From an uncultured Gemmatimonadales bacterium (GTDB taxonomy: Bacteria; Gemmatimonadota; Gemmatimonadetes; Gemmatimonadales; GWC2-71-9): a DNA stretch of 64,000 nucleotides. The notes beneath the pieces were generated by a model. It saw only the letters and a program-made list of their open reading frames with translations, had not been told where the DNA came from and ran no database searches. The stretch lies in contig CAVYSW010000003.1 of the NCBI GenBank assembly GCA_963771275.1, positions 1,632,001-1,696,000 of the forward strand. Direction: 5' to 3'. Positions 8,558 through 15,860 of this stretch are shown piece after piece (within the stretch, counting starts at the first letter, position 1; each line of letters opens with the position of its first letter). A program made the position numbers and the translations under genes.

Positions 8558-9028
8558 CTAGCGACCGGGCGGGCCGGTGCAGCCCTCCCGGCGGCGGGTG
8601 TCCGCGATCTGGATGATCCGCCAGCCGTCGTCCATGCGGGCCAGCAGGAAGGCGTCCACGCCGCAGTGGGTGAGGGTGCCGTCCGCGTAGAACGCATACG
8701 GGGTCCAGACGGCGGCGAGATCACCGTCGATCCGGACCTCCGGATCCCAGAACTGTTCGTCCAGGTGGGCGGTCGCGCCCGCGACGCCGGCGATGAAGCG
8801 CGCGACCGGCACGGCGCGCACGACGACGTGCCCCTGCTGGTCACGTGCCGGTCCCGACAGGATGGCCTCCGGATGGAGCACCGCGTGGAGCGCCACGGTG
8901 TCCTTCGCCCGCATCGCGTCGAACAGGCGTTGCACGACCGCGATGACGTCGGCCGTCGCGTCCTGGGCGGGGAGCCGGGCCGGCGCCAGGCCGGCCAGCA
9001 GCATCAGGGTCACGGCGCCGGGCTTCAC
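8558..9028 (-). CDS. Secreted NTF2/SnoaL-like protein
   Basis: GTG start overlapping the upstream TGA; signal peptide; LFDAMRAKDT, EVRIDGDLAAVWTPYAFY, HCGVDAF, WRIIQIADT. Confidence 0.8.
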   Translation of the reverse strand: MKPGAVTLMLLAGLAPARLPAQDATADVIAVVQRLFDAMRAKDTVALHAVLHPEAILSGPARDQQGHVVVRAVPVARFIAGVAGATAHLDEQFWDPEVRIDGDLAAVWTPYAFYADGTLTHCGVDAFLLARMDDGWRIIQIADTRRREGCTGPPGR

Positions 9029-12000
9029 TGGCTTCCCCCCTGCTTGGCCTCCTCCGGCAGCAGCGTCACCTGCACGTAGTTGTCGAGCCGGAGGTAGCGC
9101 CGCGCCGCGTCCCGGATGGTCGCGGCCGTGAGGCCGCCGATCAGCTGATCGGCGGTCAGGATGGTGCGCGGATCGACGCTCCAGCGCTGGGCCGCCACGA
9201 GCTGGCCGAGCCAGTAGGCGTTCTGCTTCAGGCTGGTCTCCCGCGTGCGCAGCTGGGTCTCCATGACTTTGTGCACGATGGAATCGGACGGGCCCGCGCT
9301 CTGGAACGCCCGCAGCGTCGTGAACGTGCTGTCCACCAGCTCGTCGATGCGGGCGGGATCGGCGCCGAACCCGATGGAGACGCTGTACGTCGTGTCGGGG
9401 GCAATCGCGCTCGAGCCGCTGACGCCCACCCCATACACGCCGCCCAGGTCCTCCCGGAGGACCTCCCGCAGCCGGATGCTCAGGGCGTCCGCCAAGGCGC
9501 GCAGCGCGTAGCGGGCCTCCCGGCTGTCCTGGAACGGCCCGGTGAAGACGAGCTGCGTCCGCGCCTTGGGCTCCACCCCCTTGTGGACGACCTTGCGGAC
9601 GATCCCTGCGGGCGGCGGGATGTTGAGGTCGCGCCACGTCTCGTGCCGCCGGATCGACGGCAGGCCGCCGAGGTACTCCTCGACCAGCGGCCGGATGGCG
9701 GCGAGATCGATGTTGCCCACGAAGTAGAACGTGAAGTCGCTCGCGTCGGCGAACCGGTCGCGGTAGAACGCCATGGCGCTGCCGAGATCCACTTCCTGCA
9801 CGACGGCCGGCGTGAGGGGGCGCTCCCGGGGATTGCCCTGGGCGAGCGTCACCTGCAGCGTATCCTGGAAGTTCGCCTCCGGACTCGCCCCGCGGTTGGC
9901 CACGAACGCGAGCAGCCGCTGACGCAGCGACCCGAATGCGGCGCTGTCCAGTCGGGGTGCGGTCACGTACAGGTACGCCAGCTGGAACAGCGTCTCGATG
10001 TCCTTGGGGGAGGCGCTGCCGCGCAGCCCCTCCTCGGTGTCGTCGATCGAGGGGCCGACCCGGACGGCCTTGCCCGCCAGCACCTTCTGCAGGTCGACGG
10101 CGCTGAACGTCCCGACGCCCGACACGCCCACGATGCTGGACGCCAGCTCCGCCGACATGTACCGGTCGTCGGGGATCAGCGACGTGCCGCCGGGGCTCAC
10201 GGCCTGCATCAGCACCTCGTCGTCCTTGAAGTCGGTCGGCTTGAGCACGACCCGAACACCGTTGGCCAGCGTCCACTCGGTCACCCCGAGCTCCGGGATG
10301 GTCCGCTCCGCGACGATCGAGGAAGGCGTCGGCGCCACCGGCACCAGCGGCGCCTGCCCCAGGGTATCGGCGTAGGCCGCGATCTGCTTTCCCGCCACCT
10401 GGCCGAACACCGTGCTCAGCTCCGCCTCCGTGGGGACCGGCACGGCCGGCTTCTCGGGCGCGCTCACCAGCACCACCCGGTTCGCCGGGGTGATCCACGC
10501 GCGCGCGATACGGTTGACGTCGTCGAGCGTGATGCCCGGCAGGAACTCCCGCGCGAGAGCCAGCTCGGTCGTGATCCCCGGGATCGGTTCCTGCTCCAGG
10601 AAGTTGCGCCCGTACTCGTCGGCGTAGGTGCCCGATTCCGTCTTGGCGCGCTCGGCATAGGCCTGCTCCAGGCCGCGCAGCCTGCGCGCCTTCTCGCGCT
10701 CGAGCTCGGCGGGGGTGAACCCGAACCGCGCGACCCGCTCCGCCTCGGTGAGCAGCGCGTCGAGGCCCCGCACGGTGCCGCCGTCGCGCACCGCGGCTCC
10801 GAGCGAGAACACCTCTTTGGCGCCGATGAAGCGCCCCTGGCCCGCGCCCGCGCCGAGGACCGGCGGATCGGCCTTCTGGGACAGCTCGAAGAACCGGGCG
10901 TTCAGCATCGCGCTGAACAAGTCCTCGACGATGCCCTGCCGGTAGGCGCCAACCGTGGAGTGGTCCCGGAGGGCCTGCTTGTACAGCACGCTCACGCTGG
11001 TGTTGGTGGCCTCCTTGTCGCTCGCGATGGCGAACAGCGGCTCCGCGTGATCGGGCACGTCGATCGTCGGCCGCGGCCGCTCCGGCGACGGATTGCGCAG
11101 CGGCGCAAACCGCTCCCGGATCAGGGCTTCGATGGCCTTGGGATCGAAGTCCCCCACCGCGATCACCGCCATCATGTCGGGCCGGTACCAGTCCCGATAG
11201 AACCGCTTCAGCACCTCATGGCGGAACGTCCGGAGGATGTCGGGCTTCCCGATCGGCAGGCGCTCGGCGTATTTCGACCCCTGGAAGATGACCGGCAGCT
11301 GCTTGTCCAGCATGCGGGAGCCCGCTCCGCGTCCCAGACGCCACTCCTCGATGATGACGCCGCGCTCCTTGTCGGTCTCGACCGAATCGAACGTCACGCC
11401 GTCGGCCCAGTCCTCGAGGATCTGGAACGCCGTCTGCACGACGGACGCCGTGTCGGTCGGGATCTGCAGCATGTACACCGTCTCGTCGAAGCTCGTGTAG
11501 GCATTCACCTCCGGCCCGAACTTCATGCCGACCGACTCCAGGTAGTTCACCAGCTGCTGCTTCGCGAAGTGCCGGGTGCCGTTGAACGCCATGTGCTCGA
11601 CGAAGTGGGCCAGACCCTGCTGGTCATCGTCCTCGAGCACGGAGCCGGCGTGGACCACGAGCCGGAGCTCCGCACGGTGCTCGGGCTTGGCATTGGCGCG
11701 CACGTAGTAGCGCAGGCCGTTCGGCAACGTGCCGACGGTGACCTGCGAGTCCACCGGCAGCGGCTGGGCCGGCCGGTCCTGGGCGCCGAGCGCGGCGGGC
11801 AGGCCGAGCAGCAGCAGCACCGCGAGCGAGTGCTTGAAGCGGTCGAGATCGCGCCGCTGCTTCTTGGTGGGCCGGCCCTTGCCGTCGTAGAACGCGGTGG
11901 GCTGGGATCGCAGCTGGAGGGCCAGGGCCTCCCGGGCGCGCTTCGCCATCGGATCCTCCTCATACAGGGTGGCCGCGACCTTCGCGGGGCCGCGGTGCTC

Positions 12001-12213
12001 GGAGAGCAGCAACACCTTGAGCTTGTACTCGAACGGCCCGGCCCGGATCCGGATCCGGTCGCCGGTGTGCACATGCCGGGCGCGCTTCGCGCGCTCACCG
12101 TTCACGTCCACGCGGCCACCATCCAGCGCCGCCGCCGCGAGCGCGCGCGTCTTGAAGAAGCGCGCAGCCCAGAGCCATTTGTCGAGCCGGATCGGCGCGG
12201 CGTCGTCGGGCAA
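9025..12213 (-). CDS. In-frame fusion: Hsp15/S4 RNA-binding domain + signal-like linker + M16 (PqqL-like) zinc protease
   Basis: TTG start 8 nt after GAGGAG. N-terminal RLDKWLWAARFFKTR...GRPTKKQRRDL (Hsp15), then LAVLLLLGLPAALGA-QD, then GTLPNGLRYYV, GLAHFVEHMAFNGT (HxxEH), NAYTSFDETVY and LREDLGGVYG. No stop codon between the parts. Confidence 0.85.
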   Translation of the reverse strand: MPDDAAPIRLDKWLWAARFFKTRALAAAALDGGRVDVNGERAKRARHVHTGDRIRIRAGPFEYKLKVLLLSEHRGPAKVAATLYEEDPMAKRAREALALQLRSQPTAFYDGKGRPTKKQRRDLDRFKHSLAVLLLLGLPAALGAQDRPAQPLPVDSQVTVGTLPNGLRYYVRANAKPEHRAELRLVVHAGSVLEDDDQQGLAHFVEHMAFNGTRHFAKQQLVNYLESVGMKFGPEVNAYTSFDETVYMLQIPTDTASVVQTAFQILEDWADGVTFDSVETDKERGVIIEEWRLGRGAGSRMLDKQLPVIFQGSKYAERLPIGKPDILRTFRHEVLKRFYRDWYRPDMMAVIAVGDFDPKAIEALIRERFAPLRNPSPERPRPTIDVPDHAEPLFAIASDKEATNTSVSVLYKQALRDHSTVGAYRQGIVEDLFSAMLNARFFELSQKADPPVLGAGAGQGRFIGAKEVFSLGAAVRDGGTVRGLDALLTEAERVARFGFTPAELEREKARRLRGLEQAYAERAKTESGTYADEYGRNFLEQEPIPGITTELALAREFLPGITLDDVNRIARAWITPANRVVLVSAPEKPAVPVPTEAELSTVFGQVAGKQIAAYADTLGQAPLVPVAPTPSSIVAERTIPELGVTEWTLANGVRVVLKPTDFKDDEVLMQAVSPGGTSLIPDDRYMSAELASSIVGVSGVGTFSAVDLQKVLAGKAVRVGPSIDDTEEGLRGSASPKDIETLFQLAYLYVTAPRLDSAAFGSLRQRLLAFVANRGASPEANFQDTLQVTLAQGNPRERPLTPAVVQEVDLGSAMAFYRDRFADASDFTFYFVGNIDLAAIRPLVEEYLGGLPSIRRHETWRDLNIPPPAGIVRKVVHKGVEPKARTQLVFTGPFQDSREARYALRALADALSIRLREVLREDLGGVYGVGVSGSSAIAPDTTYSVSIGFGADPARIDELVDSTFTTLRAFQSAGPSDSIVHKVMETQLRTRETSLKQNAYWLGQLVAAQRWSVDPRTILTADQLIGGLTAATIRDAARRYLRLDNYVQVTLLPEEAKQGGSQ
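11833..12213 (-). other. hslR: Hsp15 (heat shock protein 15, S4 domain) portion of the fusion
   Basis: RLDKWLWAARFFKTRALA..A..GGRV.VNG, RGPA..AATLYEE and GRPTKKQRR are hallmark Hsp15 motifs. Confidence 0.88.
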
Positions 12214-12318
12214 TGCCGGCACTCCTCGCGTACTGGGGTCGAGACGTCCTCGCCACCGCCTAAGGTCGCGTGGCCCGGCGCCGTCCGCAACCGGGGACCG
12301 CGCGGTAAGTTCCCCGCC

Positions 12319-13176
12319 ATGACCGTCGCCTTGGCAACCTGCGCCGCCCTGCCGGGCCTCGCGAGCGACGACCGGAGTCTCCTCGGCGCGTTGCGGGCGC
12401 TGGGGGTGGCGGCGGAGCCCGCCGTGTGGGAGGACCAGCTCTACGACTGGGCCGGCCTCCGCCTGTGCGTCATTCGGTCCGCGTGGGACTACGCGTATCG
12501 GCGGCCGGCGTTCGTGGCGTGGAGCCGGCGCGTCGCCGCGGTCACGACCCTGTGGAACCCGGCCCCGATCGTCGAGTGGAACACGCACAAGCGCTACCTC
12601 GTGGACCTGGCGGCTCGTGGCGTCCCCGCCGTTCCGACGATCGTGCTCCCGGCCGGCTCCGCCCCGCGGCTGTCGGAGGTCGTGGCCGGCCGGGGGTGGG
12701 ACGCGGTGATCCTCAAGGCGGCCGTCGCCCAGACCGGCCGGCACCTGCTGCGGGTCGACTCCACGGAGCGGCCCCGCGGCCAGGCGCACCTCGATCGCCT
12801 GCTGCCCCACGAAGACCTGCTGGTGCAGCCATTCCTGCCCCGCGTGACCGACGCGGGGGAGGTTTCGCTCGTGTTCATCGACGGCGCGTTCTCGCACGCG
12901 GTCCGAAAGCGTCCCGCCGCGGGGGATTTCCGGGTGCACGACGATTACGGCGGGAGTGTCGCCGCCGTCGAGCCGGCGTCGGCCGAGCGCGCGGTCGCGG
13001 AGGCCGCCATCGCCGCCGCCGGGACGCCGCTGCTGTACGCCCGCGTCGACCTCGTGCCGGGGCCCGCCGGACCGGTCGTCATGGAGCTGGAGCTGGTGGA
13101 GCCGGACCTGTTCCTGGGCTACGCGCCCGGCGCCGCAGAGCGGCTGGCGCGGGCGATCGTGGCGCGGCTGGGCTGA
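12319..13176 (+). CDS. ATP-grasp fold protein (RimK/glutathione synthetase-like)
   Basis: IRSAWDY, WNTHKRYL.DL, LVQPFL...GEVSLVF, YARVDL, VMELELVEPDLFL. Real start is ATG 12319 inside ORF 9271..13176. Confidence 0.85.
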   Translation: MTVALATCAALPGLASDDRSLLGALRALGVAAEPAVWEDQLYDWAGLRLCVIRSAWDYAYRRPAFVAWSRRVAAVTTLWNPAPIVEWNTHKRYLVDLAARGVPAVPTIVLPAGSAPRLSEVVAGRGWDAVILKAAVAQTGRHLLRVDSTERPRGQAHLDRLLPHEDLLVQPFLPRVTDAGEVSLVFIDGAFSHAVRKRPAAGDFRVHDDYGGSVAAVEPASAERAVAEAAIAAAGTPLLYARVDLVPGPAGPVVMELELVEPDLFLGYAPGAAERLARAIVARLG

Positions 13177-13911: not shown

Positions 13912-14541
13912 GTGAGGCGGCTCGTGATCGCTCTGGCGCTCGTGACCGCGGCATGCGCCGCGCGCCCCGACGCGCGGTCGAGCGCCGGCGACGACAACCC
14001 GCTCGGCCTGCGCGGTCGGGTGCTGGCCGAGCCGCTCGCCAAGCCGGCGTTCGTGCTGACGGATACCGGTCATCGCCCGTTCGACTTCCGGCGCCAGACC
14101 GACGGCTACCTCACCCTGCTGTTCTTCGGTTACACGTACTGCCCGGACGTCTGCCCGGTGCACATGGCGAACCTCGGCGCGGTGATCGCCCAGCTCGCGC
14201 CCTCCCTGGCGGATCGGATCCGCGTGGTCTTCGTCACGACCGATCCGGCGCGCGATACGCCGGAGCGGCTGCGGCAGTGGCTCGACAACTTCGACCGGCG
14301 GTTCATCGGCCTGACGGGCGATACGGCGCAGATCGCGGCCGCCGAGCGCGCGGTGGGGCTGCCGGCCGCGGAGATCGGGCCGCGCGACAGCACGGGCGCG
14401 TACGAAGTCGGACACTCCGCCGTGGTGGTCGCGTTCACCCCCGACAACCTGGCCCACGTGCTCTACCCGTTTGGCATCCGCCAGGCGGACTGGGCCAATG
14501 ACCTTCCCAAGCTCCTCACGATCGCATGGCCCGGATCCTGA
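13912..14541 (+). CDS. SCO1/SenC copper chaperone lipoprotein
   Basis: GTG start after GAGGAG; lipobox TAAC; FFGYTYCPDVCP (CxxxC); DPARDT; conserved His in VGHS. Confidence 0.93.
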   Translation: MRRLVIALALVTAACAARPDARSSAGDDNPLGLRGRVLAEPLAKPAFVLTDTGHRPFDFRRQTDGYLTLLFFGYTYCPDVCPVHMANLGAVIAQLAPSLADRIRVVFVTTDPARDTPERLRQWLDNFDRRFIGLTGDTAQIAAAERAVGLPAAEIGPRDSTGAYEVGHSAVVVAFTPDNLAHVLYPFGIRQADWANDLPKLLTIAWPGS

Positions 14542-15017
14542 TCGTTCCACTCGCCGTGGGGGTGGCCGTGGCGGCCGCGGCGTGCCGCCGGGCGCCGGAG
14601 GGAAGAGCGGGAGAGCGGGACGGAGCCCTCACGATCGCGGACGCCTATGCGGCGGAGCCCGTGAGCGATGAGGCGGCGGTGGTCTACCTCACCATCCGGA
14701 ACGGCACGAGCGCCGCCGACACCCTGGTAGCTGCGGCGACCCCGATCGCGGCGACCGCCGGGGTCCACCACCAGATGGCCATGGGCGCGATGACCCACAT
14801 GGAACCCGCCGGGCCCGTCCCAGTGCCGGCCGGTGGGGAGCTGCGGCTCGAGCCGGGCGGGACGCACCTCATGCTGGAGCGGCTGACGGCGCGGCCGCGG
14901 GTCGGGGACACGATTGACGTGACGCTCACATTCAGCCGCGCCGGCCCGATCCGCGTGCGTGTTCCGGTGATCGCGTATGCCGAGGTCACCGACCGGGCGG
15001 CGCACCCGGTCCATTAG
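14526..15017 (+). CDS. Copper chaperone PCu(A)C
   Basis: Lipobox AAAC; AVVYLTIRN, H-x..M..M, LEPGGTHLML; overlaps the SCO gene. Confidence 0.92.
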   Translation: MARILIVPLAVGVAVAAAACRRAPEGRAGERDGALTIADAYAAEPVSDEAAVVYLTIRNGTSAADTLVAAATPIAATAGVHHQMAMGAMTHMEPAGPVPVPAGGELRLEPGGTHLMLERLTARPRVGDTIDVTLTFSRAGPIRVRVPVIAYAEVTDRAAHPVH

Positions 15018-15020
15018 ACG

Positions 15021-15860
15021 ATGACCTGGTGGTGCGCGGCGCGGGGTCTCCCCTGGACCTGGGAGTGGCAGGCCTTCCCCGGCGTGTGGCTGTTCGTCGC
15101 GTCGCTCGGCGCGACCTACGTCTGGGCCCTGCGGCGGCTGCCACCGGCCCGGTTCGCCGGCGACGACCGGCCGACCACCCGGCGAGAGATCGCGCTGTTC
15201 CTCCTCGGGTTGCTCGCGTTGTGGGTCGCGGCCGACTGGCCGGTGGGGCTGCTCGCGGCGGGGTACCTGTTGAGTGCCCGGACCGTCCAGTATCTGCTGT
15301 TCGTTCTCGTGGCGCCGCCCCTCATGCTGCTCGGCATGCCGCGATGGCTGCTGCGCCGCTTGACGCGGCCGCGCGCCGCGTTCCGCCTCGCGCGGGTCCT
15401 GACCCGACCGCTGGTCCCGCTCGTGATCTACAACGTCGTCCTGGTGGCGATGCACCTGCCGCCGGTCGTCGAGAGCGTCAGCGGCTCCCAGCTGGCCTCG
15501 TTTGGCCTCGACACGGTGGCGATCCTCTCTGGATTCGTCTTCTGGTGGCCGGCGCTCGCCCGGCTGCCCGAGCTTACGCCGATGGGCTACCCCGGCCGGA
15601 TCGGCTACCTGTTGCTCAGCGTGTTCGTGCCCACCGTGCCCGCGGCGTTCTTTACCTACTCACGGTACCCCATCTACGGCCTTTACGAGCTCGCGCCCCG
15701 TGTCGGCCATCTCGGAGCGGCGCTCGACCAGCAGCTGGCCGGGCTGATGATGAAGACGGTGGGCGGCGCAATCCTGTTCACCACGATGTCCGTGATGTTC
15801 TTCCGTTGGCACCGCACGGAGGCGGCGGCGGAACCGGCCGGCCCCGCCGCGCCGGCCTGA
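15021..15860 (+). CDS. ctaG: Cytochrome c oxidase assembly factor, Caa3_CtaG family (degenerate)
   Basis: Multi-TM; APPLMLLG, MHLP, FWWP, DQQLAGLMMK; clustered with SCO and PCuAC. Confidence 0.8.
   Translation: MTWWCAARGLPWTWEWQAFPGVWLFVASLGATYVWALRRLPPARFAGDDRPTTRREIALFLLGLLALWVAADWPVGLLAAGYLLSARTVQYLLFVLVAPPLMLLGMPRWLLRRLTRPRAAFRLARVLTRPLVPLVIYNVVLVAMHLPPVVESVSGSQLASFGLDTVAILSGFVFWWPALARLPELTPMGYPGRIGYLLLSVFVPTVPAAFFTYSRYPIYGLYELAPRVGHLGAALDQQLAGLMMKTVGGAILFTTMSVMFFRWHRTEAAAEPAGPAAPA

Follow-up and report, generated by a model that had tools for sequence, protein, structure and literature searches.

The 64,000-nucleotide stretch of an uncultured Gemmatimonadales bacterium analysed here, hereafter the window (contig CAVYSW010000003.1, positions 1,632,001 to 1,696,000), carries on its reverse strand an open reading frame (ORF) of 1062 amino acids in which the ribosome-rescue factor Hsp15 runs, through an internal signal peptide, into a PqqL-type M16 protease. 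This fusion is a genuine, conserved gene in a single reading frame, as an earlier note on this DNA had claimed from the sequence alone. We suggest, giving it a little better than an even chance, that this one gene likely uses two starts and that its product is likely cut by signal peptidase I (SPase I), so that Hsp15 would remain at the cytoplasmic face while the protease would reach the periplasm, the two probably acting independently of each other.

The junction between the two parts is spanned by a single contig, with 0–4 differing letters and no joints, in each of the four sequencing runs examined (of 20 listed, none of them from RNA; four studies), one of which is possibly the source of the window's assembly. 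Further, 33 of the 35 proteins (584–1859 amino acids) that match residues 1–150 have the S4 plus M16 architecture at 62–91% identity, the remaining two being spurious frames. In GTDB, the fusion is present in all seven genomes of the window's own genus and all three of a second Gemmatimonadales genus, and a fusion-like score (best E <1e-60) was reached in no other of 400 sampled genomes of the family, whose tallies include eight unpublished genomes entered solely as lacking the fusion. The assembly check and the search of relatives that the earlier note had proposed were therefore both positive, and the spanning contigs, the 33 further clusters and the nine other GTDB genomes refute an assembly error or a strain-specific deletion, for which we found no support and to which we give practically no weight.

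The distribution appears narrow. Among 301 genomes of the phylum, a match across the junction was obtained only in the window's genome (G000) and in G072; a match in G041 (8–112) proved to be an ordinary standalone M16 protein. A GTDB pattern scan, non-exhaustive in that it missed G005 and G186, returned eight stretches, all from Gemmatimonadota, and related database records fall in Gemmatimonadota/Gemmatimonadales. None of the 80 loci kept from a metagenome scan covering 4 of 64 parts is fused, and these were used as standalone controls. Named database members are mostly called "zinc protease" or "insulinase family protein", labels that hide the Hsp15 part. We found no description of an Hsp15-M16 or hslR-pqqL fusion, or of a gemmatimonad Hsp15, in the open-access literature, and the combination of fusion, internal signal and second start is unreported so far as we searched, each ingredient having precedent.

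Both partners are complete, in agreement with the earlier note. Pfam places S4 at residues 9–54 and Peptidase_M16 at 173–290, followed by M16_C. Over its full length the protease part aligns with 9LDY (E 1e-183) and with E. coli PqqL 6OFS (E 3e-84), and Foldseek superimposed its model on 9LDY with a TMt of 0.92; sequence and predicted structure both show the four-lobed clam-shell M16 fold with HxxEH, a motif intact in all 36 fused proteins. It shares these features with E. coli PqqL, the P. gingivalis M16 peptidase (9LDY) and Pectobacterium FusC; unlike theirs, its signal lies internally or on a 56-residue leader of Hsp15 sequence, and standalone PqqL homologs carry ordinary N-terminal signals. 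The fused protease is predicted from its signal motif to be periplasmic, as is reported for E. coli PqqL, whose signal is cleaved (PMC6793856). No gene of the size of a TonB receptor, as would be expected of a YddB-PqqL or FusA-FusC-like system with a TonB-dependent transporter, is evident beside the fused loci, as judged with a simple gene caller and partial annotation.

The NCBIfam Hsp15 profile covers residues 5–129 with 92.7 bits, under its equivalog cut-off of 148, which may reflect the distance of the lineage (standalone Hsp15 from Gemmatimonadales were unscored). The same residues align without gaps to 6–130 of E. coli Hsp15 (HslR; 1DM9/8AP4), and R9, R18, R23, K43, K117, K118 and R121, kept in all 36 fused proteins, are the equivalents of E. 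coli R10, R19, R24, K44, K118, K119 and R122; E. coli Hsp15 and B. subtilis RqcP are the nearest known counterparts of this part. The equivalents of R9, R18, R23 and K43 are reported as ribosome contacts in E. coli Hsp15 (PMC9757039), in which helix α4 is also reported to contact the tRNA anticodon loop and α5 to sit in the 30S mRNA channel (bioRxiv 10.64898/2026.04.23.720132). Both the rRNA- and tRNA-contacting residues of the S4 domain and the basic α4–α5 residues of the mRNA channel are present in the fused Hsp15. It differs from E. coli Hsp15 in having Ala at the equivalent of R28 and in lacking a stop after α5, continuing into the hydrophobic h-region of the signal and the 918-residue protease; standalone Hsp15 of other genera terminates a few residues past the RFK motif. 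Its long C-terminal helix is of the type found without RqcH, and NFACT_N gave no match over the cut-off in the window's genome.

Several lines suggest that this Hsp15 is functional. No second Hsp15 gene was found by tblastn in the window's genome (96.7% complete), and the ratio of nonsynonymous to synonymous changes (pN/pS) in the region 5′ of codon 89 is 0.09–0.32 in all nine full-length pairs (uncorrected). The long form is probably used, since it is the sole source of Hsp15 in that genome, its S4 part is under purifying selection and its ribosome-contact residues are invariant. As a separate observation, G005 has an additional standalone Hsp15 distant from its fused copy (L031:860-1234, G005:C522).

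A free Hsp15 C-terminus was not found, since none of the 10 fused loci has a stop or a conserved frameshift exit; a programmed frameshift was considered and rejected, the slippery heptamer occurring in one locus of 10 only and the alternative-frame stops being scattered. Therefore, every Hsp15 would be made with the protease attached. In the alignment and the AlphaFold model α5 passes directly into the h-region without a linker, and residues 103–145 mostly have a predicted local distance difference test (pLDDT) score <50. A C-terminal tag on E. coli Hsp15 is reported to slow its release (bioRxiv 10.64898/2026.04.23.720132), and because the α5 contacts are conserved and no linker precedes the h-region, we infer that Hsp15 has to be released from the protease, and probably from the membrane as well.

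The internal segment is likely a cleavable Sec/SPase I-type signal, judging by motif and hydropathy. Position −1 is Ala in 35 and Gly in one of the 36 fused proteins, +1 is Gln in all, −3 is Leu, Ala, Ser or Val in all (Leu 20, Ala 14), and Pro occupies −6 in 26; the uncharged run before the cut, c-region included, has 15–18 residues in 35 of them. The basic α5 has a net charge of +5 to +8 in every one. Two proposals of the earlier note, that the Hsp15 tail supplies the n-region and that SPase I cuts between A144 and Q145, are thus supported. Mean hydropathy over 12 residues is 2.38 for the internal signal versus 2.40 for 26 standalone M16 signals, and the best 19-residue mean is 1.52 versus 1.68 in the signals of standalone homologs. 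Of 205 roughly called candidate signals in the window's genome, 47% have Gln after the Ala, compared with 3% in protein bodies, and this genome encodes two SPase I enzymes and an RseP-like M50 protease. A Tat signal, which follows the rule RR-x-hydrophobic-hydrophobic, was rejected: the RR is followed by x, Leu/Ile and Asp/Glu/Asn in the alignment, and is native to standalone Hsp15. A pyroglutamate at the Q145 N-terminus is unsupported, as the glutaminyl cyclase PF05096 was not found in G000 (96.7% complete; other cyclase types were not searched), although, given the Gln bias at +1, a cyclase of another type may exist there.

The earlier note had further held that the protease lacks a start of its own. 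The junction indeed contains neither a stop nor an ATG, but an in-frame ATG with a strong Shine-Dalgarno (SD) sequence, 56 codons before the cut site, had been overlooked. Codons 85–89 read GAG GAG GAT CCG ATG, and pairing of the SD with the anti-SD taken from the 16S end of the window's genome (−11.2 kcal/mol) places the site among the best 0.5% of 5957 internal ATGs and the best 3% of 1535 proxy starts. At codon 89, seven of 10 fused loci have ATG and three have GTG, versus one ATG and no GTG among 123 standalone genes, in which residue 89 is mostly Glu, Ala or Asp (110/123). In the 36 fused proteins the residue is Met (22), Val (12), Ser (1) or Ala (1), and the column is free of Leu and Ile, in contrast to most variable Met columns. 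GGAGG at the Glu/Gln-Glu-Asp residues is kept in all 10 fused loci, one of them the S4-less copy described below, versus 7 of 19 standalone loci (Fisher p = 0.001), and elsewhere in these fused genes GAA is used for 16 of 56 Glu codons. Among 1049 codon columns, only column 89 combines a start codon in 10 of 10 genomes with a strong SD in nine, the three other all-start columns having no strong SD; the site was spotted first and these tests were run afterwards.

A derivative without the S4 domain points to the same codon. In a second copy in G072 (L135:4564-7479, G072:C7; P0147–P0153), which lies in another neighbourhood than the main copy, unrelated DNA stands in place of the first 67 Hsp15 codons, homology sets in again about 40 nt 5′ of the SD and ATG, and the protease, behind a 56-residue leader made of the Hsp15 tail, is full length, with a pN/pS of 0.20 relative to its closest relative, G137. 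Substitution patterns show selection on both parts of the fused gene. All seven members of this cluster (NCBI, ENA and Logan assemblies) are called as 971 amino acids from Met89. K118, invariant in the 36 full fusions, is Gln in all seven; its loss together with the S4 domain suggests that α5 is otherwise kept for Hsp15 function and not merely as an n-region.

Because synonymous sites preserve the SD, codon 89 is biased towards starts and the S4-less lineage begins there, the comparative evidence argues strongly that codon 89 serves as a second start yielding a 974-residue short form, and the independent protease start that the earlier note had named in advance as contradicting its view is thus indicated by comparison. 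Some observations weigh against this. The p value of 0.001 is overstated, the fused loci being related and the test uncorrected for kinship; GTG makes up 57% of Val codons, so that three GTG among three is weak by itself; the main copy in G072, an eleventh fused locus, has a weak SD (−5.9 kcal/mol); P0031 (Ser) and P0034 (Ala), two of the 36 fused proteins, lack Met or Val at 89; and the seven S4-less sequences, 97–99.7% identical, represent one event with starts chosen by gene callers. In-frame two-start genes are reported to give long and short N-terminal forms, sometimes in different locations (PMC13515050), and CheA L/S, SpaO and SseL, like the fusion, are single genes with two starts. Unlike in these, the short form here would lack an entire, unrelated protein, and its start seemingly arose after the fusion from SD-like codons.

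A sister locus points to how the fusion originated. G096 has a standalone hslR with the upstream neighbours of the fusion (ATP-grasp, FAH hydrolase, SCO1 and CtaG), followed directly by the SnoaL-like gene that in several genomes lies 3′ of the fusion; its codon 89 is Ala (GCG), and no PqqL-like match was found in its genome. Since hslR is kept there in the same synteny without pqqL, the simplest history would be that hslR received pqqL at its 3′ end, that the internal start was then gained, and that the S4 domain was later lost in one duplicate; one change turns GCG into GTG, and one more turns GTG into ATG. G096 is among the nearest standalone forms, whose order is unresolved, and against an insertion, pqqL could have been lost secondarily in this genome (92% complete). 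In trees obtained from quick searches, the 36 fused Hsp15 rows form one clade (Shimodaira-Hasegawa-like approximate likelihood ratio test, SH-aLRT, 81), with P0031 and P0034 basal to a 34-row Met/Val clade (support 91), whereas 36 of 37 fused rows group on the M16 tree (93), with P0034 unresolved and P0031 inside the clade. The fused state is thus a single clade by the Hsp15 tree, but two changes by the M16 tree.

Taken together, we propose that pqqL entered hslR in frame within its last codons and would thereby have lost its own start and n-region, the basic α5 of Hsp15 taking over as n-region. The Glu-Glu-Asp codons would already have resembled an SD, and codon 89 would have become ATG or GTG, from which the 974-residue precursor with its 56-residue leader would be made for ordinary Sec export. 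The 5′ TTG start would be the only source of Hsp15, and the long form would be inserted at SecYEG through the internal signal and cut at A144/Q145. In the least certain step, the Hsp15 remnant with its 17-residue hydrophobic tail would be trimmed by RseP and freed for ribosome rescue. It counts against this scheme that the internal start removes the need for long-form export, and therefore export and trimming rest on analogy. RsiV, for example, is said to undergo an SPase cut followed by site-2 cleavage. The anti-sigma factors RsiV and RsiP (site 1 cut by SPase I, site 2 by RasP/RseP) likewise combine a cytoplasm-side part with an SPase site, intramembrane trimming being predicted for the fusion; however, their regulated cut destroys an inhibitor, whereas both products of the fusion look like working proteins and regulation is not evident. 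A signal peptidase cut behind the cytoplasmic domain of RsiV has been reported (PMC4183432), internalised signals in E. coli are reported as processed (titles cited in PMC2114505), and RseP is reported to remove remnant signal peptides and to tolerate an N-terminal maltose-binding protein (PMC4597795).

Alternatively, Hsp15 might stay anchored by the 17-residue remnant at the inner membrane face for SecYEG-stalled ribosomes, and the protease made with it might clear the periplasmic parts of aborted chains, so that both would form one module whose ratio is tuned by the second start. Such coupling, which we consider unlikely, would fit the expectation that some Hsp15 substrates in E. coli are membrane-associated (bioRxiv 10.64898/2026.04.23.720132), the persistence of the fusion over two genera under purifying selection, and the report that RseP leaves some type II segments uncut, e.g., YoaJ (PMC4597795). 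However, an anchored Hsp15 would lack a linker between its α5 and the h-region, which is hard to reconcile with the entry of E. coli α5 into the mRNA channel and the slowing effect of a tag, and the second start separates the two products. Hsp15 was found within 1.5 kb of a standalone M16 gene in none of the 23 loci parsed (of 26), and PqqL-like genes were found in no more than 46 of 151 family genomes, compared with 381 of 401 matched by the junction query, mostly through Hsp15; both observations speak against coupling. The earlier note had linked ribosome rescue to periplasmic proteolysis; no result supporting a link between rescue and protease activity was found, and the G096 locus points to insertion. 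A long form that is never exported is also improbable in our judgement: the folded S4 domain would block export, the cytoplasmic Hsp15-M16 protein would go to split ribosomes, and only the short form would be secreted. Poor export of the long form would be in line with the appearance of an internal start, that start alone would explain the conservation of the signal, and C-terminally tagged Hsp15 is reported to still bind ribosomes (PMC9757039; bioRxiv 10.64898/2026.04.23.720132). On the other hand, internalised E. coli signals are reported as processed, as cited above, and P0031 and P0034, which have no codon-89 start and are basal on the Hsp15 tree, keep the signal and the Ala-Gln junction, a non-decisive argument as both have other in-frame Met codons and P0031 falls within the clade on the M16 tree.

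A single start followed by cleavage of the polyprotein, as the earlier note proposed, would require that Met/Val89 is kept for structural reasons; we hold it distinctly improbable, somewhat more so than these two. It would be consistent with the absence of Met/Val89 from P0031 and P0034, and residue 89 could be selected in the protein given the reported contact of E. coli α4 with the tRNA anticodon loop; yet the Glu, Ala or Asp of standalone Hsp15, the lack of Leu and Ile in the column, the SD kept at synonymous sites and the S4-less lineage starting at codon 89 all speak for initiation. The uncleaved single-pass protein reaching from ribosome to periplasm, one of two outcomes foreseen by the earlier note, is very unlikely: the frame is continuous and a hydrophobic stretch does separate the cytoplasmic domain from the periplasmic one, but the uncharged run is short even with the c-region, Pro is frequent at −6, the best 19-residue hydropathy is like that of standalone signals, and Ala/Gly-Gln is kept in 36 of 36. 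We thus return to the two-start gene with a cleaved product as the preferred reading.

The features of the locus are listed in Table 1. A SnoaL-like cluster lies 3′ of the fusion in four of the six fused loci with enough downstream sequence. Scans for promoters and terminators at the fusion locus gave no candidates, and RNA folding at both start regions is unremarkable. Genes for copper/cytochrome oxidase assembly (SCO1/SenC, PCu(A)C and CtaG; window 13912-15860, plus strand) are conserved upstream in both genera. An antisense open frame of 1301 codons (window 9271-13176, plus strand), which overlies the protease gene and enters the ATP-grasp gene at 12319, is probably a high-GC shadow frame.

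Table 1. Features of the fused locus and its immediate neighbours (window positions).
Feature	Position	Strand	Basis or remark
DUF4440/SnoaL-like protein, N-terminus itself signal-like	8558..9028	-	downstream; GTG start overlaps fusion stop (GTGA)
Fused ORF, long form, 1062 amino acids, TTG start	9025..12213	-	Hsp15, signal peptide and PqqL-type M16 protease
Predicted mature M16 protease, residues 145-1062 (918 amino acids)	9028..11781	-	full-length match to 9LDY and 6OFS
HxxEH zinc-binding motif, residues 203-207	11593..11607	-	intact in 36/36 fused proteins
Signal peptide h- and c-region, residues 128-144	11782..11832	-	motif; predicted SPase I cut 11782/11781
Basic Hsp15 α5, residues 114-127, predicted second role as signal n-region	11833..11874	-	charge
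Hsp15 moiety, residues 1-127 (S4 domain, α4, basic α5)	11833..12213	-	aligns without gaps to E. coli Hsp15 6-130
Likely internal start codon Met89; short form 974 amino acids, leader 56 amino acids	11947..11949	-	comparative
Internal SD GAGGAGG, encoded by Glu85-Glu86-Asp87	11955..11961	-	-11.2 kcal/mol duplex
SD-like GAGGAG, 8 nt 5′ of the long-form TTG	12222..12227	-	-7.9 kcal/mol duplex with the genome's own anti-SD
Divergent ATP-grasp gene	12319..13176	+	conserved upstream neighbour, also beside standalone hslR of G096

Other fusions of Hsp15 were also encountered. The earlier note had envisaged Hsp15 joined to other exported proteins; a hydrophobic stretch after Hsp15 occurs only in P0077 among 70 proteins, and as this is the same fusion and candidates numbered 3533, the negative is weak. 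P0077 comes from the fused gene of G137 (L142:188-1633, G137:C71), which is frameshifted near residue 285 through an assembly error or as a pseudogene. A called protein of 247 amino acids, P0143, has the first half of an S4 domain and M16 sequence and looks like an error-rich long-read copy of the S4-M16 fusion. Several of P0114–P0144 (mostly Logan) form a separate family with an S4/Hsp15-like N-terminal domain and a long low-complexity tail rich in Gln, Asn, Tyr and His. In HAD hydrolase-Hsp15 fusions (367 amino acids; P0113, P0128, P0129 and P0139), found in four clusters of 2–65 members, Hsp15 is likewise joined to an enzyme; unlike in the S4-M16 fusion, Hsp15 is C-terminal, α5 is free and a signal peptide is not involved.

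The gene is a natural example of a single frame that holds two unrelated proteins, predicted to belong to different compartments; the RNA-binding tail of a ribosome factor would be reused as the n-region of a signal and a start site seemingly evolved inside the upstream partner after the fusion. Extant sequences show all the intermediates, namely the fusion without the start, the fusion with it, and the form that has lost the S4 domain. The finding raises the questions of whether Sec and SPase I can process a natural signal behind a folded domain of 127 residues, and whether Hsp15 can work with its α5 joined to a hydrophobic tail.

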